Shown: piece by piece, positions 2,837 to 61,455 of the stretch
Position numbering within the stretch: position 1 is the first letter of the stretch
Layout of the letters: each line of letters starts with the position of its first letter
Source of the DNA: an uncultured Planctomycetota bacterium
GTDB lineage: Bacteria > Planctomycetota > PLA2 > JAEUHO01
Direction of reading: 5' to 3'
Assembly (NCBI GenBank): GCA_963752285.1
Contig: CAVVXN010000001.1
Coordinates: forward strand, 480,001-544,000
DNA length: 64,000 nt
The notes under the pieces: generated by a model
Told to the model about the DNA's origin: nothing
Seen by the model: only the letters and a program-made list of their open reading frames with translations
Database searches by the model: none
Made by a program: the position numbers and the translations under genes

Positions 2837-4609
2837 TCAGCGTTCGACGTCGAAGACGACCGTGGCCTGGCCATCGACGATGTAGGGGACGTCCCGCCGC
2901 ACCTTCTCGGTGACGGGCTCGAGCTGGGCGCCCGTGCTGTCGTTCGAGCGCGCGAGGCGCGGCAGCGCGGAGAGCGGCACGTTCCGAACGAGGTGTCCGC
3001 CCATGTCGAGGTTCACGCGTCCGGTGGGCACGACGGCGATCAGCTCCGTGCTCTTGTAGAACGCCGCGTACAGCTTCGGGATGTCCTGGACGTCCACGGG
3101 GTTCGCGACCTCGGCGGGAACCATGTCGCCGCCCGTGACGAGGACGGGGAGGCCGCCGGCGGGCGCGTCGGTCGGGATTCGGAGCTTCACGCGCTCGTAG
3201 AAGATCCCGCCGTTCTCCCGGCGCCGGAGCCGTGCGAGCACCTCCACCTCGTCCCCGGGGTGCACCGATTCGCGCGAGGCGGACGCGGCCTCGATCGTGC
3301 ACCTCCGGTCCACGTTCTCGATCTCGACCGAGAGCTTCACCCACTCGAACTCGGCGCGCTCGGTCGGGTGGATCATGACCCGGTCTACGAGGCCCATGAG
3401 GATGCGGGAGAGCCCCGTGTCGAAGCCGGCGATGGTGTCCTCGTAGGACCACGGCTTCTCGACCCCGGCGAGCTTCACCTGGATCGTGTAGCGCTTGCTG
3501 TTGGCCCCGAGCGTGCCCTCCGACCTCGACATCATGTCGCGCAGGGCGATGAACATCATCCGTTGGAAGAAGCTGCGATTCGCGGTGATCTCGACGTGGA
3601 ACGACTCCTTCCGTCCCGTGACCGCGTTCGAGATGTCCACGTCGAACGGCACCATGGGCGCGGTCTTGCCGCGAACGCCGATGATGCCGGCGTCGCGGTC
3701 CTGGATCAGCGCGCCCACGTCGCGGATCGACGCGCCCAGCTTGAAGGAGATCTCCACGCTGGGGACCACCGTGTAGACGTACCCGACGCTCATCGGGAAG
3801 AGCGTCTCTCCCATCCCGATGAAGGGGTGGCCGAACGCGAGGATCTTGTCGCCCTCGATCCAGGTGCACGTGCCGACCGCCGCGACGTTCAGATCGCCGC
3901 GGATCAGGTCCACCACGAGCGCGGAGCCCGGGACGAGCGGCGCGTCCAGGTTCGCCCAGCCGCCGGGTGCGCCGGCGACGAGGCCCCCGCTGACCGTGTG
4001 GGGGTCGAAACCGTACGGCTCCATCGCCGCGGCGATCTCGGCGCGGCCCTTCGCCGTGAATCCGCCGATGGCCAGCGGCGTGGCGATGGGGACGAGCTCC
4101 TTCGCGTCGGCGCCGATCGGCACGGGCGGTCGCTGGCGCAGCGGGGTAGGGGGCTCCGCGCCCGAGGCGCGGCCCTCGAGGGGGCGGTCGGCCTCGGCCA
4201 GCATCGTCTCGATCGGGGTGATCCCCGCCAGCGGCTCCTTCGACCAGGCCCACGTGTAGGAGAGCGCCCCGACCACGCGCCCGTCGATGTACATCGGCGA
4301 TCCGGACATGCCCTGGGCGACGCCCAACCGGGCCAGGTCGTCGCCGAGGCACCGGACGAGGATCACGTCCTCCTTCGCGAGGTAGTGGTGGATGACGTCG
4401 ATCACCTCGACGGGGAAGCGCGTCGTCTTCGTCGCGGAGAGGACCGTGACCACCTCGCCCTTGAGGCCCGGCCGGATGTCCCGGAGCGGGAAGATCGAGT
4501 CGTGGCGGGACGGGGCGGCCTCCGGCGGGTCCTCGCCCGCGCCGGCCGGGCCGACGCCCGCGAGGACGAGGAGCGCAAGGACAGAGGCAGGCAGGCGGAA
4601 GGTCGGCAT
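2837..4609 (-). CDS. SpoIVB-like peptidase S55 domain protein, secreted
   Basis: Signal peptide; GVAQGMSGSPMYIDGRVVGALSY and LAFGHPF motifs typical of S55-domain proteins. Confidence 0.85.
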   Translation of the reverse strand: MPTFRLPASVLALLVLAGVGPAGAGEDPPEAAPSRHDSIFPLRDIRPGLKGEVVTVLSATKTTRFPVEVIDVIHHYLAKEDVILVRCLGDDLARLGVAQGMSGSPMYIDGRVVGALSYTWAWSKEPLAGITPIETMLAEADRPLEGRASGAEPPTPLRQRPPVPIGADAKELVPIATPLAIGGFTAKGRAEIAAAMEPYGFDPHTVSGGLVAGAPGGWANLDAPLVPGSALVVDLIRGDLNVAAVGTCTWIEGDKILAFGHPFIGMGETLFPMSVGYVYTVVPSVEISFKLGASIRDVGALIQDRDAGIIGVRGKTAPMVPFDVDISNAVTGRKESFHVEITANRSFFQRMMFIALRDMMSRSEGTLGANSKRYTIQVKLAGVEKPWSYEDTIAGFDTGLSRILMGLVDRVMIHPTERAEFEWVKLSVEIENVDRRCTIEAASASRESVHPGDEVEVLARLRRRENGGIFYERVKLRIPTDAPAGGLPVLVTGGDMVPAEVANPVDVQDIPKLYAAFYKSTELIAVVPTGRVNLDMGGHLVRNVPLSALPRLARSNDSTGAQLEPVTEKVRRDVPYIVDGQATVVFDVER

Positions 4610-4703
4610 GAGCCCATCCGGCAGGGAGGTGGCCGGATTCTAGCCCGGGGGTCCGCGAGGGCGACCCGGGCCGTGCCGGCGGAGACGCCCTGCCTTTCGA
4701 GCC

Positions 4704-5864
4704 TCAGTCGGCGGACGGAGCGTCCAGGTCCGCGACGAGACGGCGGAGCTTCGTGAGGACGGCGGCCGGTCCCTCGAGGACCACGGCGTGCCCCGCCTCG
4801 TCCGCCACCACGGCGGCCGCAACGCCGTCGCGCGTCCAGGCCTCGGGCGACGCCGCGATGACCCGAGCCACGACATTCTCCACGTCCCGGGCGAGGGCGT
4901 GCTCGAGTCGCACGACCTCGACCGCGGAGGGCGGCGCCTCTTCCTTCTTCGCGGGCGCCTCGGGCAGCGCCACGTCGAGGAGGCGGATCGCCGCCCCGAC
5001 AGCCTCGACGTCCGCGGGCGAACCGCGCGCGAGGATGCGGTTCCCGCGCGGGAGAGCGTGGACGTGGAGCCTCGGGCCGCCCTCGGCGTCGGTCGCCGGG
5101 ACGTTCGGCGCGGGGTCGTTCGCGTCGAGCTGGAGGCGGAGGAGCGGCGCCACCTCGGCGGCGTCGGCGTGCGAGAGGGGGAACACGCGTTGCACGGCCG
5201 CGCGCTTCGCGAGTCTCGTGTCGAACTCCCGGACCAGCCGCCAGACCTGGACGACCGTCGGGGCGAAGTCGGTCACGACGAGCGCGCCCGACTCGGGAAG
5301 CTCGGTGACGGACCCGATGTTCATCCCGGTGACGAGCTTCGAGACCGCCGTGCGGAGCTCCCGGAGCGACGAGGCGTGCTCCACCGGCAGGGTCGCGGTC
5401 ACGAAGACGCCGTCCTCGGAGGCGAGGTCGTCGGCGTTCTGCTCGGTGATGTCCACGCGGATCGGCCGCAGGTGGAGGATCGCGGCCGACTGCCGGACGT
5501 CCAGGACGATCCACGTGGGATCCTCGCGCGGCCCGACCTCGACGACCGCGAGCTCGTAGAACGTGAGCAGCGATCGCGCCCACGAGAAGAGGTGGTCGGG
5601 CGTCCCGCGGCAGAAGAGCGGGCCCGACATCTTCTTCCCCTGGATCTGCCGCGACTGCGGGTCCCACACGAGACGACGCGACGTGGCCTCCGCGACGACG
5701 CGCAGGAAGGCGCCCGTGTCCATGTCCTCGGTGGTCGAGATCTCGACCTGGGGCGCGGCGCCGGGCTCCCCCGCGGGCGCGGTCCTCGAAAGGGCGAGCA
5801 GCAGCGCGCTCGCCCCGAGGACCCCGAACAGGACTCCGACGCACGGCTTCGACCTCGGCTCCAT
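4704..5864 (-). CDS. Secretin N-terminal (GspD N0/N1-N3-like) domain protein lacking the secretin barrel
   Basis: Signal peptide; repeated units of the type V.PL.HADA.EVA..L and NRILARGSPADVEAVGAAIRLLD, ending RRLVADLD. No C-terminal secretin domain. Confidence 0.65.
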   Translation of the reverse strand: MEPRSKPCVGVLFGVLGASALLLALSRTAPAGEPGAAPQVEISTTEDMDTGAFLRVVAEATSRRLVWDPQSRQIQGKKMSGPLFCRGTPDHLFSWARSLLTFYELAVVEVGPREDPTWIVLDVRQSAAILHLRPIRVDITEQNADDLASEDGVFVTATLPVEHASSLRELRTAVSKLVTGMNIGSVTELPESGALVVTDFAPTVVQVWRLVREFDTRLAKRAAVQRVFPLSHADAAEVAPLLRLQLDANDPAPNVPATDAEGGPRLHVHALPRGNRILARGSPADVEAVGAAIRLLDVALPEAPAKKEEAPPSAVEVVRLEHALARDVENVVARVIAASPEAWTRDGVAAAVVADEAGHAVVLEGPAAVLTKLRRLVADLDAPSAD

Positions 5865-6916: not shown

Positions 6917-7708
6917 TCAGCGCGACGCGGGCGCGGTGCCGAGCGCCTCGTCCAGCGCCTCGCGCGCGTCCGTCGGCGTGGTCAGGTCGAGGTCGGCGGC
7001 GCCCGCCCGGACGGGCAGGCGGGAGACCTCGTAGTACGAGAGCAGCTTGTTCTTCTCGCGCACCTCGGTGCGGACCCTGGCGAGGCGTTCCTGCGCGGCG
7101 GCGAAGCCACTCGACGAGACGCCCGTGTCGCCGACCGCCTCGCGCGTGTGCGCGGCGGCCGTGCGGGCGTCGAGCGACTCGATCTCGGCCGCGAGCACCT
7201 GGACCTCCTGGGCGAGGCGCGCCTGCTCGGTCCGCGCCTCCTCGATGGAGGCGAGCGTGGCCGCGTGCTCCTGCTTCAGGCGATCGAGGTCGGCGCGGCG
7301 CCGTTCGAGGAGCTCGGTCTCTGCCTTGAACGCCCACGCGCGACGGACGGCCTCCTGCTCCTCGGGCCGCGGCGCGGTCGAGGTCGGGACGACCTCGAGG
7401 TCGCGGCGGAGGGAGGTGAGCTCGGTCCGTTCGCGGCCCACGCGGCGCTCGAGGGTCTTCACCTCTCGCTCGGTCTGGGCGACGCTCTCGCCGAGGTTCT
7501 CGGCCGCGACCTCGCCCTTGATCACGCTCTCGGCGTACGAGTCCACGAGGGCGCGCGCCTCGGCGAGCTGCTGCTTCAAGGGCACGTTGGCGGTCAGGTG
7601 CTCGCGGATCTCGCGGCGGGCCTCGCCGATGGCGCCCTTCACGACGTCGACGCCGACGAAGGCCACGAGGGCCGCGCCCGCGACGACAAGGAGGAGGATC
7701 TTCTTCAT
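6917..7708 (-). CDS. Coiled-coil protein with N-terminal hydrophobic anchor/signal, PspA/IM30-like
   Basis: True start MKKILLLVVAGAALVAFVG (ATG 7708, GGAG upstream) lies inside the 904-aa track ORF. The remainder is a long E/R/A/L-rich heptad helical region. Confidence 0.6.
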   Translation of the reverse strand: MKKILLLVVAGAALVAFVGVDVVKGAIGEARREIREHLTANVPLKQQLAEARALVDSYAESVIKGEVAAENLGESVAQTEREVKTLERRVGRERTELTSLRRDLEVVPTSTAPRPEEQEAVRRAWAFKAETELLERRRADLDRLKQEHAATLASIEEARTEQARLAQEVQVLAAEIESLDARTAAAHTREAVGDTGVSSSGFAAAQERLARVRTEVREKNKLLSYYEVSRLPVRAGAADLDLTTPTDAREALDEALGTAPASR

Positions 7709-7719
7709 CGGAACGACTC

Positions 7720-9615
7720 CTAGCGGGGGAGGAACGGGGGAGGGGAAGGGGGGAACCCGAACGCGCTGCGGGGGAGCTCCGGGCGGGCTTCCACCGGAAC
7801 CGGGTGGCGGGGCGCGCGCGTCAGGTGCCGCACGGTGTAGAGGCCCGAGAGGAACCAGGTCGAGAGGAGCACCACCACGAACACGACGAAGGCGATGCCG
7901 ACGCCGCGCCTCCGGCGACGGCGGTAGAACGTCGCGACGAGCACCGCCGTGGCGACCGCGAGGGCCACGAGGCTCAACCGAACGGCGTGCTGGCGTGCCG
8001 GCTCCATGCTCGCCCAGAACGTCCCCAGGTTCTCGGCGACGGGCTGGGGGCCGAGCATCAGGAAGCCCGCGTAGAGCGCCCACAGGAGCGACGCGAGGAG
8101 GAGGACGTGCAGCCAGAACGGCGCGGCGCGCCGCCCCGCCCGCGCCTCGACCCGCACGACCGGCGACGCGACGACGGGCCGGGGCCCCTCGAGCGCGCGG
8201 CGCCCCACCTGGAACGCGCGGCGGGCGCGGTCGGAGGTGAACACGACGAGGCCGTACACGCCGAGCGCCGTTCCGAACGGCGGGAGGAAGAGCAGGAGGA
8301 CGCTCGTCGTGATCTGCCCTTCGCGCGCGCCCTGTGACATGCGCGAGAGCCGGCCGCCCTGACGCAGTAGAAGGATGGCGGCGATGAGCGCGAGCACGCC
8401 CCCGACGCGCGGCCACATCGGGAAGACGCCCTCGAGCACGGAACGTCCGAGGACGCCCACGAACGCGAGGAGGAACAAGACGCCGAACACGCGGTCGAGC
8501 GCGGCGGTCAGGTCCACGTGGCGCAGGATCGAGCGGAGCGCGTCGAGGCTCTCCTCGCCGAGCACGACCGGTTCGGGGGGCGCCGATCGCGCGCGCGGCG
8601 GCGCGGACCGCGACGTGCGGCGGCGGGCCCACGCCTCGTCGATGGCGTCGCCGAACGACGACGCGGAGGCGAAGCGGCGCGCGCGCTCCGGCGCGAGCGC
8701 GCGGTTCACCACGGGATCGAGCACCTCGGGCACGTCGGGACGGACCCGGCTCGGCGGCTCGAAGCGCCCGAGCGGCAGCACGCCCGTGAGCATCTCGTAG
8801 AGCAGCACCCCGAGCGCGTACACGTCGGCGCGCCCGTCGAGGTCCCGTTCGCCGCGGCGCTGCTCGGGCGCCATGTACTCGTACGTGCCGAGGATCACGT
8901 CGGTCCTCGTGAGGAGCGTCGTGGCTTCGGGCCCGCCGTTCGTGGCGAGGCGCGACAGGCCGAAGTCCACCAGGTGGACGCGGCCGTCGTCGTCGAGGAG
9001 CACGTTCTCGGGCTTCAGGTCGCGGTGCACGACGCCTCGCGCGTGCGCGTAGGCGAGCGCGCGGGCGATCTCGCCGGCGATGCGCACGGCCTCGGCGGGC
9101 GGCAGCGGGCCCTGGTGGATGCGGCGGCGCAGGTTCTCGCCGCGCACGTACTCCATCGCGAACCAGAGCCGGCCGTCCTGCTCGCCACGGTCGAGCACCT
9201 CGACGACGTGCGGATGCGAGAGGCTCGCCAGGACGCGCGCCTCCCGGTGGAACCGACGGACGAACGCCGGGTCCGCGGCCAGCTCGCCCGAGAGGATCTT
9301 CACGGCCACCCGACGACGGCCCGGGGCGTCGGTCGCCTCGTACACGCGGCCCATTCCGCCCTCGCCGATCTTGCGGACGAGGCGCCACGGCCCGAGCGAC
9401 GTGCCCACGAGCGGATCGACCTCGGGGGCGCCCGCGCGGGGGTGCCCGTCGTGGACCGTCGCGCGGTGCACGGCGGAGAAGGCGGTCCCGCAGGCGGGAC
9501 ACGCGACGGCCGCGCCGTCCTCGGGGACGGGGACCGGCTCGCCGCACTCCGGACAGTGGGTGGTCCACGTGTCGATGGCGCCCCCCTTCGAGAATGCGAT
9601 GCCCGCCGGGTCCAT
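7720..9615 (-). CDS. Membrane-anchored Hanks-type Ser/Thr protein kinase with N-terminal zinc ribbon
   Basis: CPECG..CPACG ribbon; GEGGMGRVY, VAVK, HRDLKPEN, DFG, GTYEYMAPEQ; multiple C-terminal TM helices. Start uncertain (9615 ATG, 9624 GTG or 9576 ATC). Confidence 0.9.
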   Translation of the reverse strand: MDPAGIAFSKGGAIDTWTTHCPECGEPVPVPEDGAAVACPACGTAFSAVHRATVHDGHPRAGAPEVDPLVGTSLGPWRLVRKIGEGGMGRVYEATDAPGRRRVAVKILSGELAADPAFVRRFHREARVLASLSHPHVVEVLDRGEQDGRLWFAMEYVRGENLRRRIHQGPLPPAEAVRIAGEIARALAYAHARGVVHRDLKPENVLLDDDGRVHLVDFGLSRLATNGGPEATTLLTRTDVILGTYEYMAPEQRRGERDLDGRADVYALGVLLYEMLTGVLPLGRFEPPSRVRPDVPEVLDPVVNRALAPERARRFASASSFGDAIDEAWARRRTSRSAPPRARSAPPEPVVLGEESLDALRSILRHVDLTAALDRVFGVLFLLAFVGVLGRSVLEGVFPMWPRVGGVLALIAAILLLRQGGRLSRMSQGAREGQITTSVLLLFLPPFGTALGVYGLVVFTSDRARRAFQVGRRALEGPRPVVASPVVRVEARAGRRAAPFWLHVLLLASLLWALYAGFLMLGPQPVAENLGTFWASMEPARQHAVRLSLVALAVATAVLVATFYRRRRRRGVGIAFVVFVVVLLSTWFLSGLYTVRHLTRAPRHPVPVEARPELPRSAFGFPPSPPPFLPR

Positions 9616-9859: not shown

Positions 9860-11731
<1,872 letters not shown>

Positions 11732-11847: not shown

Positions 11848-12243
11848 ATGACCTCGTCAGGCCGCCGTCTCTCGCAGCGAAACCGCCTCGAGCGTCCCGT
11901 CGAGGCCACGCTCGGCCTTTGCACCGAGGGCCGCGTCTTCGGCTGGATCGTGGACGAGCAGGACGACGGCATCGGGATGGTCTTCGGCGGCGCGGACGTC
12001 TCCCGGATGGTCGCGCACCGCGACTGCTGCCTCCGGGCCGAGATCGACCTCTGGCTCGTGGACGACCCGACGCTCGACCCCACCCGGCCGATCCCGATGC
12101 GGCTCGCGCACGTGACGCCCTCGGACGACGAGAAGACCTGCCGGGCGGGTCTCGCATTCGACGTCGGCCGCATGCAGCCGCAGGACATCGTCCACCTGCT
12201 GGGCATCTGGCGCCGCCTCGTTCCGGCCACCGAGCGCGCCTGA
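11848..12243 (+). CDS. Small PilZ-like domain protein (degenerate motifs)
   Basis: GGGAG RBS; N-terminal RLSQR (RxxxR), then DEQDDG in place of DxSxxG, and C-terminal AGLAF strand. Confidence 0.5.
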   Translation: MTSSGRRLSQRNRLERPVEATLGLCTEGRVFGWIVDEQDDGIGMVFGGADVSRMVAHRDCCLRAEIDLWLVDDPTLDPTRPIPMRLAHVTPSDDEKTCRAGLAFDVGRMQPQDIVHLLGIWRRLVPATERA

Positions 12244-12271
12244 GTCCCGCGCGAAGCGGGCGGGCCTCCGG

Positions 12272-12631
12272 TTACGTCGGGACGGGCGTCCAGCCCTCCG
12301 ATACGAGGCGTCCGAGGACCTCCGGGTCCTCCCGGCGCGCGCCCGCGCGGAGCGCCCCTTTGTCGAATCCCCGCTGGTCCAGGCAGCGGCCCGCGCAGTA
12401 GATCCCTCCGCCCCGCTCCGCGATCCGGTCGAGGTGCTCCCACGGCGTCCCGGGCCCGGGCTCGCGGAGGGTCTCCGCCACGCCGCGCACGCCGAGGCGC
12501 ACGCCCTCCGAGTGGAGCCAGAGCGCGACCTCGTGTCCCGCGTCCGCGGCGCGCGCCGCCGCGTGGAGCGCCGACGCCGCGCGGTCCGGGTCGTCGGTCG
12601 AATGGGCGAGGACGTAGAGGAGCCGGCTCAC
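12272..12631 (-). CDS. DsrE/DsrF-like family protein
   Basis: GTG 12631; LLYVLAHSTDDPDRA..GHEVALWLHSEGV..IYCAGRCLDQRG matches the DsrE-like pattern with conserved Cys. Confidence 0.75.
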   Translation of the reverse strand: MSRLLYVLAHSTDDPDRAASALHAAARAADAGHEVALWLHSEGVRLGVRGVAETLREPGPGTPWEHLDRIAERGGGIYCAGRCLDQRGFDKGALRAGARREDPEVLGRLVSEGWTPVPT

Positions 12632-12687
12632 GCGGGGCGGAGGATACCCGTCGGGCTGCCCGGCGGGAATCGGGGAAGCAGCCCCCA

Positions 12688-12728
12688 TACGAAGACGGCG
12701 ACCCGCCCCGTAGAGGAGCGGGTCGCCG
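12688..12728 (-). terminator. Probable intrinsic terminator after the 13520-12780 gene
   Basis: Perfect 11-bp stem CGGCGACCCGC (12696-12706) / GCGGGTCGCCG (12718-12728), followed on the minus strand by TCTTCGTAT. Confidence 0.6.
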
Positions 12729-12779
12729 CAGGTATCGAGACTTCGAAGAGGAGCCCGGGTGCGTCCCGGGCGTCGCGGA

Positions 12780-13520
12780 TCAGGCGGCCTCGACCTCCAT
12801 CTGGAAGAGGTCCTTCTGCTCGCCTTCGGCCTTCTTCTGGCGCGCGTCGAGGTCTTCCTTCTCCTTGGCGATCTTCTTCGCCTCGGAGTCGTTCACCCCA
12901 CGCTGCTCCTTGTCCGAGAGGATCTGGCGCTCCTTCGCGATCTTGTCGAACTCGTTCAGCACCTTCCGCAGCGCGCCCACGTTGCGGTCGAGGTTGCCCT
13001 TGTACGACTTCTTCGCGCACTTCTGCATCGCCGACCAGATCTTCGATCCGCTGACCTTCTTGCCGTCGATGACCTCGACGACGTCGTAGTCCACGTCGAT
13101 GAAGACCATGCGCGGCGCGTCGTCACCGGTGTCGGCGAGGAGCTTGTCCTTCGCGGCCAGCTCGGGCGACACCTTGACGCAGCGGAAGAACTTCGAGCCG
13201 ATCCGGACCTTGTCCGGGTCCAGCGCGATCTTGTCGATCTTCGCCATCGCGTCCGCGTCGCCGTCCGCAACGACGTACACCCACATCGGGCGATCGAGCC
13301 GCTCCTTCGCCTCGGGACGGGCCGCGACGGGCGTCGCGGTCGAGTCGTCCGACGGCGTGACCTCGGCGTTGTTCGGTGCGATGTGCTGAGCGCTCTCCCA
13401 CTGGATCGTGAGGACGGCCATACTGGCCGCCGAACGACCTCAGCACCCTCCGATCGCGGTCTGCTGGACGCCCAGCAGCGCCACGGCGGACACCGCCGCC
13501 AGCATGAAGACCTTGCGCAT
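12780..13520 (-). CDS. Candidate secreted selenoprotein (246 aa; Sec27 at UGA 13442-13440; G-C-U-G motif) with thioredoxin-like domain and C-terminal coiled coil
   Basis: Track ORFs 13440..13649 and 12780..13421 are in the same frame and separated only by one TGA. ATG 13520 has an AGGAG RBS and encodes signal peptide MRKVFMLAAVSAVALLGVQQTAIG-GC-UGA-GRSAASMAVL. A SECIS-like hairpin follows immediately. Confidence 0.75.
13404..13439 (-). promoter_or_regulatory. Candidate bacterial SECIS element 1
   Basis: UGA-GGUCGU-UC-GGCGGCC-AGUAU-GGCCGUC-CUC-ACGAUC: 6-bp lower stem, internal loop, 7-8-bp upper stem. The apical loop contains GU and begins 16 nt after the UGA. Confidence 0.7.
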
Positions 13521-13689
13521 CCGTCGCTCCTCTCTTCCTCGACGAAACCTGCCCGGGGGCGGACACCTGGACCGACCCGGGTCTTCCATGAGCATAGCCG
13601 ATCCGACCCCCGGATGCGAACCGGCGACACCGATCAAAACGACGTGCACGGCCGCCGTGTTTCACCCCAGGGCCCCGATCTCGTCGATT

Positions 13690-13970
13690 CTAGGGTCGAA
13701 AGACCCGGCTCGACGCCCCGCTCGGGGGTGGCGGGAAAGGGGACGGCCGGGCGGGCAGCGGGAGGGTGAGAGGGAGGAGGCAGGGACACCACGTCCTGCC
13801 GGCATCCGCCCGACCGTCCAAGGAGGTCGAGGGGACCGAGCCCGGGGCGCGGGGGGCGCGACAGGGAGGGAGGGGAGGGAGGGAGGAGAGACGCCGCGCC
13901 TCTCTCACCACGACACCCGGGACTCGGCTCCTCGGAAATCGAAAAGATCCCGCGGGCACGGGCCCGCTCG
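13690..13970 (-). ncRNA. Candidate structured CCUCCC-rich small RNA or long 5' leader
   Basis: Non-coding stretch downstream of a sigma54 motif, with hairpins (GAGAGA..UCUCUC, GGCAGG..CCUGCC, GGGUC..GACCC) alternating with CUCCC repeats. Boundaries approximate. Confidence 0.35.
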
Positions 13971-14241: not shown

Positions 14242-14463
14242 ATGACGTGAACGCCGCTCTCCGGGCGGAAGTTGTTCGCCCTCCTCCTCCTGACCGCCGT
14301 CGGCGCGGCCGTCTACGGCGTTCCCGGCGCGCTGGCGGGCTACGTGGCCGGGTCCCTCCTCGGCGCGTTCCTCCCGAGCCGCGAGGCCGGCGCTTGCGAC
14401 GTCGGCGCGCGTCCGGCGCCGCGAGCCCTCCTCGGGCCGCCCCCCCGTTCCGACGAGGGCTGA
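14242..14463 (+). CDS. Candidate small membrane selenoprotein (73 aa; M-T-Sec-TPLSGRK-[TM]-[TM]-..GACDV); otherwise a 63-aa protein from TTG 14272
   Basis: ATG(14242) ACG TGA(14248-14250) is in frame with track ORF 14272..14463. GAGGGAG lies upstream of the ATG and a SECIS-like hairpin follows the UGA. Confidence 0.55.
14263..14281 (+). promoter_or_regulatory. Candidate bacterial SECIS element 2
   Basis: GGGCGGA-AGUUG-UUCGCCC, a 7-bp stem with a 5-nt loop starting AGU at nt 20 after the UGA. Confidence 0.5.
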
Positions 14464-23742: not shown

Positions 23743-24852
23743 TCACTTGGCGTCGGTCTTGGCCGCCTCGTAGCGGTCGAGGGCCTTCTGCAGGTCCTCC
23801 TTCATCGGGCTCTCGGCCTTCTCGACCGCCTTCTTCTCGAGCTCGATCGCCTGATCGACGTCGCCCTTCTCGAAGTGGACGCGTGCCACGGTGTCGAGGA
23901 TCTCGGGGCTCTCGCCCTTCGTGATCTCGTTCGCGCGGTCCGCGAGCTTCATGGCGAAGTCCAGGTCACGGCGCTTCACCTGCTCGTCGTCCACGACCGT
24001 CCACGCGATCGCGTTCAACGACCCGGCGTCGTCCCACGCGGCCTTGGACACCTCGTCGGCGTACTCGTAGGCCGCGTCCGTGTCTCCGTGCTGCAGGAGG
24101 ATCATCACCTTCTGGACCTTCAGGGGAACGAGGTCCGGCGCGATCGCGATCAGCTCGTCGTAGATCGAGGCCACCTGGCCCCAGTCGTCGTTCGAGGCCG
24201 CCTCCGCCATGCGCTCCTGGGCCGACTCCATCGCCTCCTGGAGCTTCTGCTGGGCCTCGAACTCCTTCTTGAACGCCTCGCGGTCCCATGTCCCCGCGAC
24301 CACGGAGGCGAGCGGCTCCTCGATCGCCATCGGGTGGCCGATCCACTCCACCTTCCCGTCCTTGCCGACCACGAAGGCCGTGGGGATGCCGTTCTGGCCC
24401 GCCGCCTCCATGTAGTCGCGCTGGGTCGAACGGTCGGGGTCGGTCGCCAGCGTGTAGCGGGTGCGGTCGTTCTCGAGCTGGCCGTCCGCGTCCTTCTTCC
24501 AGAGGAACGCGACCACCCAGGGGAGGCTCTCGTCCGAGACCCCGATCACGTGGACCGGCTGCCCGGCGTAGTGTTCCGCGACCTCGGAGAGGTGGGGCAT
24601 CCCTGCGCGGCACGGACCGCACCAGGTCGCCCAGAACTCGATCACGTACACCTGTCCCGGCTCGAAGGTGGTCACGGGCGTGAACTTGCCCCGCCGGTCC
24701 ATCTCGACGCCCTTGACCCAGTACTGGATGTCGAGCGCCGGCGCGGGGTCGCCGATGTCGAGCTTCGCCACGTCTTCGTCCGCCGACGCGGACACGGAGA
24801 ACGACCAGATCGAGCCGAGCACGAGCACGAACAGGGCGAGCGATCGCAGCAT
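23743..24852 (-). CDS. Secreted TlpA-like thiol:disulfide oxidoreductase with C-terminal TPR region
   Basis: Signal peptide; IGDPAP, EFWATWCGPC, GIPTAFVVGKDG; helical LNAIAW / ILDTVARVHFEKGD repeats. Confidence 0.88.
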   Translation of the reverse strand: MLRSLALFVLVLGSIWSFSVSASADEDVAKLDIGDPAPALDIQYWVKGVEMDRRGKFTPVTTFEPGQVYVIEFWATWCGPCRAGMPHLSEVAEHYAGQPVHVIGVSDESLPWVVAFLWKKDADGQLENDRTRYTLATDPDRSTQRDYMEAAGQNGIPTAFVVGKDGKVEWIGHPMAIEEPLASVVAGTWDREAFKKEFEAQQKLQEAMESAQERMAEAASNDDWGQVASIYDELIAIAPDLVPLKVQKVMILLQHGDTDAAYEYADEVSKAAWDDAGSLNAIAWTVVDDEQVKRRDLDFAMKLADRANEITKGESPEILDTVARVHFEKGDVDQAIELEKKAVEKAESPMKEDLQKALDRYEAAKTDAK

Positions 24853-25151
24853 GAGACTCTCCTCTGCCTCCCTCGAGGCGGCCCGCGCTTCGGCGGGAAC
24901 GCGACATCGTACGCGTCGGGGAGCGGGGCCGCGCGCGCCGGGGGTCGGACCGTGGTGCGCCCGCACCATGTAGACCGAAACAGTCCACTTTCTGGCCGCC
25001 GCGGGCGCCCGCCGGCGACCCGGGCCTTGGTCCGCGCTCTCGGATCGCGTTCTTCGCCGCGCCCGCCGAGGCGTACCCTCGGTCCGTGCCGGACCCCGTC
25101 TCGGCGCGGACGCGCGGACCGGCCTTCACCGAAGAGCACCGGGAGACCGCG

Positions 25152-58952: not shown

Positions 58953-59052
58953 ACCGCCGCGCGCGGTCCACGACCGGGTGCCGGTGCGCCTGCCGACGCA
59001 TGTGTCGTGGGTGCCACGAGATGCGTCGATGTGCGCGCGGCGAACGCCCGCG

Positions 59053-59069
59053 GGGCACGGGTCGTGCCG
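59053..59069. promoter_or_regulatory. Candidate sigma54 promoter (palindromic, readable on both strands)
   Basis: Plus strand GGGCAC-GGGTC-GTGC; minus strand CGGCAC-GACCC-GTGC; both GG-N10-GC. Confidence 0.55.
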
Positions 59070-59124
59070 GTGCGAGGGTCGGGAAGGGCACAACGAGCCC
59101 TTCCCTCCGACCCGGAGAGCCGCC

Positions 59125-59379
59125 ATGCACGTCATCGCCGCCTCGCTCGACGCGCTCCTGATCCTGAACGTGGTGCTCGCGGCGCTCGTCGCGGGCGCCG
59201 TCGTGAGCGTCGCCGTCGCCGTCGCGCTCGACCTCGCGGAGCGCCGCCGGTGGCGGGTGATGGTCCCGCCGTGCTGGCCACCCCCCGGCGTGGACCCACG
59301 TGACGCGTACGCCGACGAGCTCCGGCGGCCGCCGACCCGTTCCGGGCGGGCCCCGAGCCACGGAGGAGGGAAGCGATGA
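59125..59379 (+). CDS. Small membrane protein (84 aa), first gene of the hybAB-like operon
   Basis: GGAG RBS; one long hydrophobic helix; the stop overlaps the next start (ATGA). Confidence 0.55.
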   Translation: MHVIAASLDALLILNVVLAALVAGAVVSVAVAVALDLAERRRWRVMVPPCWPPPGVDPRDAYADELRRPPTRSGRAPSHGGGKR

Positions 59380-60197
59380 GTCAAGAAACCGCCACGGCGA
59401 GCGCCCAGAGCCACGGGCTGCTCTTCGACATGGTGCGGTGCGCCGGATGCCGGAAGTGCATCGGCGCGTGCCTCGAGAAGCAGGGGTTCCCCGGCGATCC
59501 GAAGGACGTGAAGGAACTCTCCGCCCACGCCTACACCGCGATGACCGACTTCGACGACCACCATCTCCGGAACATGTGCCGGCACTGCCTCGTGCCCTCG
59601 TGCGCGAGCGTCTGCCCGGTCGGCGCGCTCCAGAAGACCGCCGAGGGCCCGGTGACCTACGACAAGGACAAGTGCATCGGGTGTCGCTACTGCATGATCG
59701 CGTGCCCGTTCAACATCCCGCGGTACGAGTGGAACGAGCCCGTTCCCGCGGTCCGCAAGTGCGACATGTGCATCGACCGGATCCGCAAAGGCGAGGTGCC
59801 GGCGTGCGCGGCGGCCTGCCCCTACGAGGCGACGGTGTTCGGCACCCGCGAGGAGCTCCTCGAGATGGCGCACGCGCGCATCGAGGAGGACCCGGATGAG
59901 TACTACGACCACGTCTACGGCGAGCACGAGATCGGCGGGACGTCGGTGCTCTTCCTGGCGCCGAAGCCCGAGCCGGCGATCGGATACAAGCCGATCCTCG
60001 GCGACAAGCCGCTGCCGGGACTCACGATGAAGCAGCTCGACCGGCTCCCCGCGATCATCGTCGGGGGGAGCGCGGCGATGCTCGCGATCTGGTGGATCAC
60101 GAACCGACGCGACGAGGTTCGCGCCTGGGAGGCCAGCCGGTCCGACGAGGCGGGCTGGCGTCCGATCGACGGGAGGAACGGCCATGACCGCGCCTAG
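59376..60197 (+). CDS. 4x[4Fe-4S] electron-transfer subunit, HybA/FdnH-like
   Basis: CAGCRKCIGAC, CRHCLVPSCASVCP, CIGCRYCMIACP, CDMC..PACAAACP; HVYGEHEIGGTSVLFL; C-terminal TM; no Tat signal. Confidence 0.9.
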   Translation: MSQETATASAQSHGLLFDMVRCAGCRKCIGACLEKQGFPGDPKDVKELSAHAYTAMTDFDDHHLRNMCRHCLVPSCASVCPVGALQKTAEGPVTYDKDKCIGCRYCMIACPFNIPRYEWNEPVPAVRKCDMCIDRIRKGEVPACAAACPYEATVFGTREELLEMAHARIEEDPDEYYDHVYGEHEIGGTSVLFLAPKPEPAIGYKPILGDKPLPGLTMKQLDRLPAIIVGGSAAMLAIWWITNRRDEVRAWEASRSDEAGWRPIDGRNGHDRA

Positions 60198-61455
60198 CGT
60201 TCGCGAGAAGCCCTACCGGCTGAGCTTCTGGAAGGGCATGTTCTTCGTCATCGTGGCCGTGGGCCTCGGCGCGACGATCGTGCGCATGATCGAGGGGCTG
60301 GGGGCCGTCACGAACCTCTCCGACAAGTACCCGTGGGGGCTCTGGAAGGCCTTCAACGTCCTCGTGGCGATCGGCCTCGGGGGGGCCGGGTTCACGATCA
60401 TGGGCACGGTGTACGTGTTCAACGCGCGCCGGTACCGTGCGATCGTGAGGCCGGTCGTGCTGATGGCCTTCCTGGCGTACCTGAGCGCGTCCTTCTCGCT
60501 CTTCCTCGACATCGGGAAGCCCTGGGCGATCTGGCACCCGATCGTCATGTGGAACCCCCACTCGGTCCTCTTCGAGGTCGCGTGGTGCCTGATGCTCTAC
60601 ACGTGCGTGCTCACCTTGGAGGGGTCGGGCATGCTCTTCGAGCGGTGGAAGTGGCACCGGATGGCGCGCATCCAGCACGCGGTGACGCTACCGATCGTGA
60701 TCCTGGGCGTCGTGCTCTCCACGCTGCACCAGTCGTCGCTCGGCGCGCTCTTCCTCATCGTTCCCGGGAAGCTCCACGGGCTCTGGTACACGGAGCTGCT
60801 GCCGCTCCTCTTCTTCATCTCCGCGATCTGCATGGGACTGGCCATGGTGGTGGTCCTCGCCCGTCTGGCCACGCGGGGGCTCGGGCACGCGATCGACCCG
60901 ACGGTGCTCGGGCGTCTGGCTCGGATCCTCGTCGCGATGCTCTGGGTCTACGGCGTGACGCGCGTCTACGACCTGGGCGTGAAGGGCAACCTGCCGCTCG
61001 CGTTCCGCTTCGACTACGAGTCCGTCATGTTCCTCGTCGAGTTCGCGCTCGGCGTGGTCCTGCCCGCGGTGCTCCTGACGTTCCCGAAGATCCGGACCAG
61101 CGCGAAGGGACTCTACGCGAGCGGCGTCCTCGTGATCTTCGGCTTCATCGCGAACCGGCTCAACGTGAGCATCACCGGGTTCGAGGCGGCGCAGGGCGGA
61201 CACTACGTCCCCGCGTGGCCCGAGATGTTCGTCACCCTGATGGTCGTCGCGCTCTGCTTCGGCGCCTACACCTTCGGCGCGCGGTACCTGGACGTGTTCG
61301 CCTCGAACGGGCACGACCACGGGCGAAGCCCGCTCGGCCCGCACGGCGGCGGGGACCGGCGCGGCCGGGCGCGGCCGCCGGCGCGCGTCGAGGCCGACAT
61401 CGCCCCCTGGGAGCGCCGGATCCGCGGCGCGGTGCCGGATCCGCGTCGCAACTGA
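60184..61455 (+). CDS. NrfD/PsrC-family membrane subunit, HybB-like
   Basis: GLGAVTNLSDKYPWGLW, DIGKPW, SVLFEVAWC, LSTLHQSSLG, NRLNV; about 10 TMs. Confidence 0.9.
   Translation: MTAPSVREKPYRLSFWKGMFFVIVAVGLGATIVRMIEGLGAVTNLSDKYPWGLWKAFNVLVAIGLGGAGFTIMGTVYVFNARRYRAIVRPVVLMAFLAYLSASFSLFLDIGKPWAIWHPIVMWNPHSVLFEVAWCLMLYTCVLTLEGSGMLFERWKWHRMARIQHAVTLPIVILGVVLSTLHQSSLGALFLIVPGKLHGLWYTELLPLLFFISAICMGLAMVVVLARLATRGLGHAIDPTVLGRLARILVAMLWVYGVTRVYDLGVKGNLPLAFRFDYESVMFLVEFALGVVLPAVLLTFPKIRTSAKGLYASGVLVIFGFIANRLNVSITGFEAAQGGHYVPAWPEMFVTLMVVALCFGAYTFGARYLDVFASNGHDHGRSPLGPHGGGDRRGRARPPARVEADIAPWERRIRGAVPDPRRN

Follow-up and report, generated by a model that had tools for sequence, protein, structure and literature searches.

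In the 64-kb stretch of DNA from an uncultured Planctomycetota bacterium analysed here (64,000 nucleotides, hereafter the window), one minus-strand gene is interrupted at codon 27 by an in-frame TGA. The reading favoured in this study is that the TGA is read through as selenocysteine (Sec) and that the product would be an exported selenoprotein of an undescribed family, in which a Cys-Sec dyad would undergo redox cycling on a thioredoxin fold. A probability of roughly 0.8 was assigned to this statement as a whole. Its parts are held with different firmness. That the gene is a genuine selenoprotein gene of an undescribed family is very likely and is the firmest part, and the redox mechanism taken alone is put forward tentatively, at rather less than even odds. 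The comparison presented below demonstrates conserved recoding signals, the occurrence of Cys at the Sec position in relatives, and the fold. Judging from the sequence comparison, Sec would actually be inserted at codon 27, and the Cys-Sec dyad would be the working centre of the protein.

Reading frame, SECIS-like hairpin and protein family

The ATG at 13520-13518 opens an open reading frame (ORF) that meets the in-frame TGA at 13442-13440 (codon 27, minus strand), and past this codon the same frame runs for 219 further codons to its own TGA stop at 12782-12780 (Table 1). The codons 1-26 ahead of the TGA translate as MRKVFMLAAVSAVALLGVQQTAIGGC, and their GC content at third positions (GC3) is 0.96, which is of the coding type. 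Ordinary ORF calling reports the gene from an internal ATG at 13421, as a 213-residue protein. This ATG has no Shine-Dalgarno sequence at a usable distance and sits in the loop and 3' arm of a hairpin. The original prediction had described a gene split at one in-frame TGA, with an AGGAG ribosome-binding site (RBS) and a signal-peptide-like segment upstream and with a downstream ATG that lacks an RBS and is buried in a hairpin. This description agrees with the frame translation from 13520 to 12780, with the position of the AGGAG (13531-13527, 6 nt from the ATG), with the charged start, hydrophobic core and GC3 of the upstream segment, whose counterparts are signal-peptide-like in all 8 genes compared below, and with the RBS scan and fold around the internal ATG. 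A scan of 12200-13900 for sigma-70 promoters and intrinsic terminators found none. TGA is the terminator of 26 of the 34 predicted window genes, and the gene's own stop is TGA in 5/8 orthologues. Therefore, TGA is normally a stop both in the window and in the orthologues, and any recoding must be local rather than a reassignment of the codon.

Table 1. Features of the proposed selenoprotein gene and its downstream neighbour (window positions).
Feature	Position	Strand	Basis
One gene, 246 codons	13520..12780	-	Frame translation from ATG 13520 through TGA
Shine-Dalgarno AGGAG	13527..13531	-	6 nt before ATG 13520
Start codon and signal-peptide-like segment, codons 1-25 = MRKVFMLAAVSAVALLGVQQTAIGG	13446..13520	-	Translation
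Cys26 codon TGC	13443..13445	-	TGC in 8/8 Sec genes; near-invariant in family
Proposed selenocysteine codon, in-frame TGA, codon 27	13440..13442	-	TGA in 8/8 orthologues
Conserved peptide G-R-S-A-A-S after Sec, codons 28-33	13422..13439	-	Alignment
SECIS-like hairpin directly after UGA	13404..13439	-	Folding, RNAalifold, published constraints on bacterial SECIS elements
Thioredoxin-like core domain, ~residues 75-175, without CxxC	12996..13298	-	AlphaFold2 and Foldseek
C-terminal long helical hairpin, residues 177-239	12804..12992	-	AlphaFold2
Own stop codon TGA	12780..12782	-	Translation
DsrE/DsrF-like small ORF immediately downstream of the gene	12272..12688	-	Pfam DsrE, E = 2.4e-6, 28.1 bits vs cut-off 22.7

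A scan of a genome collection returned seven loci (L001-L007), all in metagenome-assembled genomes of Planctomycetota, which together with the window gave eight genes for comparison at the DNA level. In all seven loci a GGAG-type RBS precedes the start codon, which is GTG in L003 and ATG in the other six, and a signal-peptide-like segment and a continuing frame follow. Cys-TGA-Gly is present in 8/8 genes and is followed by [R/A]-S-[A/S/P]-A-[S/T]. The Gly-Cys-Sec-Gly motif, on which the original prediction was built, stood in part: C-U-G is conserved in 8/8 genes, but the residue before the Cys is Gly in only 4/8 and otherwise S, S, A and E. At the internal-start position 5/8 genes have ATG, L005 and L007 have GTG, and L003 has the Lys codon AAG; initiation at the internal Met is therefore not a conserved feature. 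The relatives with Cys in place of Sec are continuous through this position and have no Met there. One published selenoprotein criterion asks for at least 10 candidate members with 100% TGA at the site (10.1101/2022.07.06.499078). Set against it, eight members have been verified in DNA, all of them with TGA, and truncated relatives (12 and 46, in sets that may overlap) are known as protein.

The segment that follows the UGA contains the hairpin expected of a bacterial selenocysteine insertion sequence (bSECIS). In the window gene its lower stem pairs 13439-13434 with 13409-13404 and its upper stem 13431-13424 with 13420-13413; the apical loop GUA occupies 13423-13421, and the internal ATG (13421-13419) overlaps the loop and the 3' arm. 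Folding of the 45 nt that begin with the UGA gives, as the structure of minimum free energy (MFE), exactly the hairpin drawn in the original prediction (-21.2 kcal/mol, z = -3.25, matched by 1 of 200 shuffles), and a 61-nt stretch reaches -32 kcal/mol (z = -3.97, matched by none of 200 shuffles). The published bSECIS consensus comprises a loop of 3-9 nt, a stem of 4-16 bp, a UGA-loop spacing of 16-37 nt and an MFE of at most -7.5 kcal/mol, and the first or second loop nucleotide is G, in most cases with G or U next to it on the 3' side (PMC13188914). A bSECIS-type hairpin was found in 8/8 genes, with a loop of 3-5 nt, an upper stem of 6-8 bp, a spacing of 15-23 nt, G then U/G at the loop start and a free energy of -8.6 to -13.1 kcal/mol. 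In seven of them it is of the CGGCCA[GUA or GUG]UGGCCG type, and the UGA-loop spacing is 16 nt in six genes. The hairpin of L005 differs in sequence yet is compliant (CGGUGAG[GGUC]CUCACCG, spacing 23 nt).

The alignment of the eight sequences was used to determine whether the stem is conserved as a structure. RNAalifold independently recovered the upper stem, and 79.5% of the cells were paired, compared with 27.7-46.4% when the 3' partners were slid by 1-3 columns. The covariation score was 0.204, against a shuffled mean of 0.092, and was reached by 0 of 500 shuffles, a control which covers eight related sequences and is not a probability. Columns 15 and 33 pair as G-C in three sequences, C-G in three and U-G in one, both sides being third codon positions. 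A stem covarying among homologues, named as a check in the original prediction, was thereby found for the upper stem, in the form of compensatory changes at wobble positions. Codon choice provides one strong and specific signal. The Ser codon that forms the loop is AGT in all seven genes with the shared hairpin type (7/8 overall), and AGT makes up 0.9% of the 770 Ser codons across the 34 window genes; the lower-stem codons GGT and CGT of the window gene are also rare (4.4% and 5.5%). The G-R-S-A-A-S segment is conserved in Cys and Asp forms as well (GRSSAA, GRSAAC, SRSAAA, HRSAAS). Because it is conserved where no SECIS is needed, the segment after the site is constrained both as peptide and as RNA.

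The distribution of the family was surveyed at the protein level. A protein search returned 13 relatives besides the window ORF, 12 of which start at the residue aligned to the internal Met. Such a start fits either a real initiation site or a conserved stop upstream, and therefore only DNA can discriminate between the two. An exhaustive profile search gave 502 representative clusters at E <= 1e-3, 250 at 1e-10 and 59 at 1e-30, a large core-domain family apparently centred on Planctomycetota. Among the 150 matches listed, 46 have their first residue right at the x-x-L-x-I-x-W motif downstream of the TGA region, and this residue is Met in 37, Leu in 6 and Val in 3; starts at Leu or Val are the outcome of gene calling when a stop blocks the frame just upstream. 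Of the same 150 matches, 32 have an N-terminal extension, as judged by a crude regular expression, and 72 are fragments or too diverged to place. A second, word-based search with the full-length alignment as its input gave 43 matches at E <= 1e-10. The longer forms from the profile search, together with matches from the word search, provided 21 full-length non-Sec proteins.

These proteins and the eight Sec genes make up 29 full-length forms, in which the residue at the TGA column was read (16 sequences were aligned, and the remaining N-termini were read against the R-S anchor). The column holds U in the 8 DNA-verified genes, C in 5 relatives (P0031, P0053, P0078, P0076, P0175) and D in 12 (P0062, P0085, P0176-P0180, P0182-P0186), with one case each of E (P0187), G (P0181), S (P0063) and W (P0095). 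The preceding Cys is present in 28/29 forms, the exception being P0076, which has CEHC. Two relatives carry an N-terminal CxxC at the dyad site, CEHC and CSSC. All five Cys forms are full length, with a signal peptide before the site and the conserved G/S-R-S-A-A after it. The check named in the original prediction, whether homologues keep TGA or Cys at codon 27 with conservation on the flanks, gave TGA in 8/8 genes and Cys in five relatives, with Asp, Glu or Gly at this position in a further clade.

A quick maximum-likelihood tree was calculated from 66 rows (8 Sec, 37 motif-truncated, 5 Cys, 13 Asp/Glu and 3 other forms); it is unrooted, and the remaining representatives were omitted as fragments or as too distant. 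Every DNA-verified Sec gene falls among the truncated proteins, and the two groups together span the tree. The Cys forms lie in two separate starred clades, and a single starred clade, itself placed within the truncated forms, holds the Asp/Glu forms and the Gly form. The simplest reading of this sequence tree is that the Sec state may be widespread and was exchanged twice for Cys and once for Asp/Glu, in a direction that the unrooted tree does not fix. Fused forms occur within the family, e.g., the 1598-residue protein P0098 with the profile match at residues 647-816, and its N-terminal residues resemble, by eye, the glycine-rich loop of protein kinases.

Fold, export and the role of the Cys-Sec dyad

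The structure of the read-through protein was modelled with AlphaFold2 using the 21-sequence alignment, which gave a predicted local distance difference test score (pLDDT) of 83.8 and a predicted template modelling score of 0.76. Residues 1-26 are of low confidence (pLDDT below 50 for residues 1-4, 6-8 and 10-26), as is an acidic linker at about 51-70, and between them a short helix (31-37) and the conserved L-x-I-x-W segment are confident. The core at 79-172 has the order beta-alpha-beta-alpha-beta-beta-alpha, with strands at 79-83, 113-117, 137-141 and 147-152 and helices at 89-99, 103-111, 119-129 and 158-172. It is followed by a hairpin of two helices (177-206 and 211-239), and the pLDDT is 94-97 over residues 171-240. 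Foldseek comparison with the Protein Data Bank (PDB) placed mostly thioredoxin-fold proteins on top (DsbH, ERp19, DsbD-gamma, thioredoxins), with a probability of about 1.0 and target template modelling scores of 0.5-0.65 over about 100 residues. Lower in the list, and at lower probability, are an unrelated match and some glutathione S-transferase chains. In the ESM Atlas feature search, which used the ordinary ORF, unnamed Planctomycetota clusters came first (0.92-0.96), followed by Thioredoxin_7, Thioredoxin_2 and DsbH clusters at 0.83-0.86, which serve as leads only. A sequence-profile search of the PDB found nothing significant, the best matches being an occludin coiled coil (E = 0.059) and thioredoxin 1syr (E = 0.49).

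The usual site of the CxxC motif is occupied by D-A-D-A (in V-Y-V-V-A-D-G-D-A-D-A), and there is no CxxC, UxxC or CxxU at the start of helix 1. Pro136, the Pro of the putative cis-Pro loop, is nearly invariant, and some distant members have Cys at the canonical site (CEGC in P0168, CDGxCGGAC in P0075 and P0097). The original prediction of a thioredoxin-like domain devoid of CxxC and extended by a coiled-coil tail is consistent with both AlphaFold2 and Foldseek, the tail taking the form of the helical hairpin 177-239 in the AlphaFold2 model. The flexible linker that was to carry the dyad did not appear. In the model the dyad lies about four residues ahead of the confident helix 31-37 and would form a short N-terminal tip.

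The N-terminus of the window protein contains 2 positive charges in its first 8 residues, and its best 11-residue Kyte-Doolittle mean is 2.55. In all 8 Sec forms the n-region is positively charged, the core is hydrophobic and the residues ahead of the Cys are small. These features suggest that the product would be exported via an N-terminal signal peptide, and the Cys-Sec pair would then lie within the first 1-5 residues of the mature protein, whether this is a lipoprotein or soluble.

Further TGA-containing redox genes were found directly beside the orthologue in three loci. In L004 (1052-1693) and L007 (4912-5613) the ORF directly upstream has a lipoprotein-like N-terminus and the active site of a BCP/PrxQ-type peroxiredoxin, in which TGA takes the position of the peroxidatic Cys (..FPKALTGG-TGA-TLEGCGF.., TGA at 1376, and ..FPKASTPG-TGA-TVEGCGF.., TGA at 5302, respectively). 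The read-through ORFs match positions 1-123 of the 124 of AhpC-TSA with E = 2.5e-31 and 6.1e-32. Gene callers would split both genes at the TGA. The two genes speak indirectly for Sec use in the related genomes. The peroxiredoxins are an established selenoprotein family (PMC13188914 Table 1), and selenoprotein genes are described as clustering with functional partners (PMC13188914). In L006 (890-1819) an exported ORF directly downstream of the orthologue reads ..HGST-TGA-GPCK.., with the TGA at 1154 and a U-G-P-C motif of the thioredoxin type. This protein has a long helical C-terminal part and only sub-threshold matches to Thioredoxin_7 and DsbH. It was considered as a paralogue of the Cys-Sec family and rejected (hhalign probability 0.3%).

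According to the proposed mechanism, the UGA at codon 27 would be decoded as selenocysteine with the aid of the SECIS hairpin that starts directly after it, and the product would be exported via its signal peptide. Processing would leave the Cys-Sec dyad in the first few residues of the mature protein, where it would be followed by G-R-S-A-A-S, by the short helix packing on the CxxC-less thioredoxin-fold domain and by the long helical hairpin. The dyad would stand in for the lost CxxC, cycling between selenolate/thiolate and selenenylsulfide, and may pass electrons to extracytoplasmic partners, e.g., the lipoprotein-like Sec-peroxiredoxin of the BCP type whose gene adjoins the orthologue in two related genomes. 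A redox role is favoured because of the fold with its cis-Pro, the alternation of Sec and Cys, the CxxC variants in two relatives and the redox selenoproteins encoded nearby. By analogy with animal thioredoxin reductase, a swinging selenenylsulfide arm is plausible.

Several observations weigh against this reading. The check at the DNA level is limited to 8 genes. In the 64-kb window, Pfam on 44 ORFs, ARAGORN and Rfam detected none of selA, selB, selD and tRNA-Sec, and ARAGORN found no tRNA of any kind there; Sec machinery is documented in several Planctomycetes (PMC4807772). The Rfam scan of the 64-kb window gave no match. The hairpin of L003 has lost its closing pair, and its loop AGUAA lies 15 nt from the UGA, one below the published 16-37. 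Only some of the 8 loci retain the lower stem. Synonymous identity is not raised in the 11 codons after the TGA (119/171 vs 1337/1917 elsewhere, both 0.70), the extra constraint in the SECIS zone being confined to specific rare stem and loop codons. Compliant hairpins also arise by chance in the window, whose GC content is 73%: 18 of 798 UGA triplets (2.3%) are followed by a model-compliant hairpin of -12.5 kcal/mol or lower and 120 of 798 (15%) by one of -7.5 kcal/mol or lower. A single hairpin taken alone is thus evidence of modest weight, and the present one stands above chance because it is conserved in 8/8 independent genomes. As regards the fold, Pfam and NCBIfam matched no family to the read-through protein at E <= 1, thioredoxin models included, and the Foldseek E-values are weak (1e-3 to 1e-2, none below 1e-3). 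The remaining points concern the redox mechanism. The first Gly of 'GCUG' is not conserved; 13 full-length relatives carry Asp/Glu and one carries Gly in the Sec column, and the Asp/Glu clade would fit a ligand role better than catalytic redox chemistry. Moreover, if Cys26 were lipid-modified, a selenenylsulfide would not be possible.

The last point leads to an alternative view of the anchoring, which is possible although the odds are against it. Cys26 may be the Cys of a lipobox, diacylglyceryl-modified and exposed through cleavage by signal peptidase II, so that Sec at +2 would be a lone selenol at the membrane surface; this arrangement would suit a redox role as well as a role as ligand. 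A lipobox pattern ends at the Cys in 7/8 Sec forms and in 1/21 non-Sec full-length forms, and in the sole non-Sec case (P0031) the pattern ends at an additional Cys that precedes the C-C pair. The neighbouring Sec-peroxiredoxins of L004 and L007 also have lipoprotein-like N-termini. However, the pattern used is a permissive one; Leu at -3, usual in a lipobox, occurs in 0/8 Sec forms, and L007 has Glu at -1. Most non-Sec forms show, by eye, an AxA-type signal-peptidase I site 1-3 residues before the Cys, and 18 of the 21 non-Sec forms have D, H or E within two positions before it, which is incompatible with a lipobox. A lipoprotein with Sec at +2 was found neither in literature searches nor among the families tabulated in the 119-family catalogue (PMC13188914). 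The more specific proposal, that the mature protein would begin with a lipid-modified Cys and then Sec, would be tethered to the membrane and would act together with the neighbouring lipoprotein Sec-peroxiredoxin, is regarded as doubtful.

The main rival to the redox role is a soft-metal or metalloid site, an unlikely but coherent alternative. Here the gene would encode the same selenoprotein, with the Cys-Sec tip binding the metal in a periplasmic chaperone, sensor or scavenger and the thioredoxin-like domain serving as a scaffold. The four residues U, C, D and E found in the Sec column are all metal ligands, Asp/Glu can replace a ligand and not a catalytic Sec, and His or extra Cys residues occur close by in the likely mature N-termini (HCD.., DCDH.., GCCCG.., GEGCACC.., DEGCEHC..). 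Several CU/CC selenoproteins have been tied to organometallic or mercury chemistry (10.1101/2022.07.06.499078), and MbdU, of the CU-motif families, is named a metal-binding protein (PMC13188914). On the other hand, neither the window nor the 7 loci showed genes for metal handling next to the gene, and the informative neighbours are redox enzymes (the Sec-peroxiredoxin in 2 loci and the UGPC protein in 1 locus). Two relatives carry CxxC, a typical redox motif, at the dyad site, and the single derived Asp/Glu clade may simply have changed its function.

The alternatives in which no Sec is inserted are far weaker. It is very improbable that the TGA is a real stop, the gene yielding a 26-residue peptide and, from the internal ATG, a cytoplasmic 213-residue protein, with the hairpin incidental or regulatory. 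Gene callers do annotate the relatives in this way, ATG or GTG stands at the internal position in 7/8 genes, and some distant members may truly start at the equivalent Met. Against this, L003 has AAG at that position, and the internal ATG of the window gene is inside the hairpin without an RBS. The frame, the Cys-TGA junction and the peptide from the TGA to the Met are conserved in 8/8 genes, and the Cys forms continue from their signal peptide with no Met there. Moreover, the upstream product would be a signal peptide with no cargo behind its cleavage site. Under the favoured reading of a Sec-decoded gene, the AUG in the SECIS loop may also allow reinitiation at low selenium, which would give a cytoplasmic form without the signal peptide and a selenium-dependent localisation; this is less likely than the lipid-anchored form.

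Readthrough of another kind, with a near-cognate tRNA inserting Trp, Cys or Arg or with some other recoding stimulated by the hairpin, is likewise highly improbable. Downstream structures do stimulate the readthrough of stop codons in other systems, and P0095 has Trp aligned to the TGA column. The hairpin, however, fits the Sec-specific bacterial model, the alternation of Cys and Sec beside an adjacent Cys is a classic selenoprotein signature, and in related genomes the catalytic Cys position of a peroxiredoxin, itself a member of an established selenoprotein family, is a TGA. Although a single-base change from TGC or TGG gives TGA, a sequencing or assembly error or a recent pseudogene has a negligible chance, given the same TGA in 8/8 independent assemblies with intact frames and a conserved hairpin and the dozens of metagenomic relatives cut at the same residue.

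Relation to known selenoproteins

In animal thioredoxin reductase (TrxR), Gly-Cys-Sec-Gly forms the C-terminal redox centre. The protein described here resembles it in an adjacent Cys-Sec pair followed by Gly near a chain terminus, which may act as a mobile selenenylsulfide/selenolthiol shuttle beside a redox fold. The dyad, however, is N-terminal here and C-terminal in TrxR; the protein is an exported one with a thioredoxin fold, whereas TrxR is a cytosolic flavoenzyme; and the SECIS is of the bacterial in-frame type, in contrast to the SECIS in the 3' untranslated region of TrxR. Pfam and NCBIfam found no pyridine nucleotide-disulfide oxidoreductase domain in the read-through protein. It does not belong to the GCUG class of TrxR because the terminus is the wrong one, there is no flavoenzyme and the first Gly is not conserved. 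The likeness to TrxR is an analogy only, with no homology.

The known thioredoxin-fold selenoproteins include Sec-thioredoxin, the thiol:disulfide interchange protein, DsbA-like, DsbG-like, Trx7/PDZ, HUIPC-motif and VPGUxxT proteins (PMC13188914 Table 1). The Cys-Sec family shares with those of the UxxC/CxxU type the fold, a Sec paired with Cys, frequent export and a bSECIS directly after the UGA. The difference lies in the position of the Sec, which those families have at the canonical CxxC site at the start of helix 1 and which here precedes that site by about 60 residues and lies at the mature N-terminus. The read-through protein is matched by none of the Pfam or NCBIfam models of those families. 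A second group, the CU-motif families, comprises the HgcA N-terminal extension, SaoC, SaoL, SaoB, MbdU, KCU-star and Csac_0668 (10.1101/2022.07.06.499078; PMC13188914). Their likeness consists in the Cys-Sec dipeptide, the truncation of database entries at the CU site and Cys-Cys in non-Sec relatives; in HgcA the CU lies in an N-terminal extension that had previously been missed, as here. The fold, the phylum and the genomic context differ, and no organometallic or mercury genes were seen near the gene or in the loci. None of the CU-motif families gave an NCBIfam match (release 20.0, E <= 1), the model of Csac_0668, present only in the Conserved Domain Database, lying outside this comparison. 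The closest structures and the nearest clusters with a name in the Atlas are periplasmic domains of the DsbH, Thioredoxin_7 and DsbD-gamma type, which too are exported and of the thioredoxin fold. In contrast to the Cys-Sec family they carry CxxC, and their Pfam models miss the family, which has in addition the conserved N-terminal segment and the long C-terminal helical hairpin.

The architecture matches none of the 119 families and subfamilies of prokaryotic selenoproteins given in Table 1 of the 2026 catalogue (PMC13188914). Nothing describing the Cys-Sec family was found in the literature, the candidate lists for two planctomycete genomes (PMC4807772 supplement) being outside the comparison, and Planctomycetes or Planctomycetota are mentioned 0 times in the available text of the 2026 review and of the BSepDB paper. 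The earlier statement that no recognised selenoprotein family is involved holds for Pfam, for NCBIfam and for the families tabulated in the 119-family catalogue. The protein is very probably a SECIS-dependent bacterial selenoprotein of the thioredoxin fold, in which Sec would have moved to the mature N-terminus, right after the signal peptide.

If confirmed, the gene would add to the bacterial selenoproteome a large Planctomycetota family that has no Pfam or NCBIfam model, with an unusual architecture, i.e., a thioredoxin fold minus its CxxC and a reactive Cys-Sec pair at the extreme N-terminus of an exported protein. In the 8 DNA-checked genes ordinary translation stops at the TGA, so that signal peptide and active residue are both lost in gene calling. 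Database relatives beginning at that residue appear truncated in the same manner and would be mislabelled as cytoplasmic hypothetical proteins. The association with lipoproteins of the Sec-peroxiredoxin type suggests an antioxidant or redox module that would be extracytoplasmic and based on selenium. New bacterial selenoprotein families turn up regularly, and the known rules of Sec decoding are unbroken here.

Neighbouring genes and further observations

The DsrE-like ORF downstream of the gene (Table 1) has a counterpart at the same position in L001, L002, L004 and L007 (4/7 loci). It was considered as an obvious thiol partner and dropped; no claim is drawn from it because its Cys residues are not conserved across the loci. 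Right after the DsrE-like gene of L002, an ORF at about 7330-8604 combines DinB_2 and FGE-sulfatase domains, an architecture common to sulfoxide synthases of the EgtB/OvoA type. Close to the gene in the window lies a sigma-54 activator with FHA and GAF domains (9860-11731, minus strand), for which tblastn found homologues in L001 and L007 and, partially, in L004.

Other TGA codons of the window were also inspected. Six further pairs of window ORFs joined by TGA were rejected as Sec candidates, there being no Cys or redox motif at the junctions, where the sequence around the TGA was examined. A hydrophobic ORF of 63 codons at 14272-14463 (plus strand), in frame with a DUF1800 gene across a TGA, was judged to be a separate small ORF because it has no Cys or redox context and the DUF1800 gene has its own start and signal-like N-terminus.

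Farther along the plus strand, 58978-61455 encodes an NrfD-like membrane protein together with a 4Fe-4S dicluster protein. Ahead of them stands only an ORF of 133 aa, which has no Pfam match, and no large catalytic subunit adjoins them. About 10 kb from the gene, a minus-strand ORF at 23743-24969 encodes an exported-looking thiol-disulfide oxidoreductase of the ResA/TlpA type (408 aa), with matches to AhpC-TSA, Redoxin and Thioredoxin and a weak C-terminal match to the model of the TPR-repeat protein PrsT. In L007, two blocks of a direct repeat with a period of about 28 nt, about 250 nt apart, lie at 4431-4894, just upstream of the Sec-peroxiredoxin gene.

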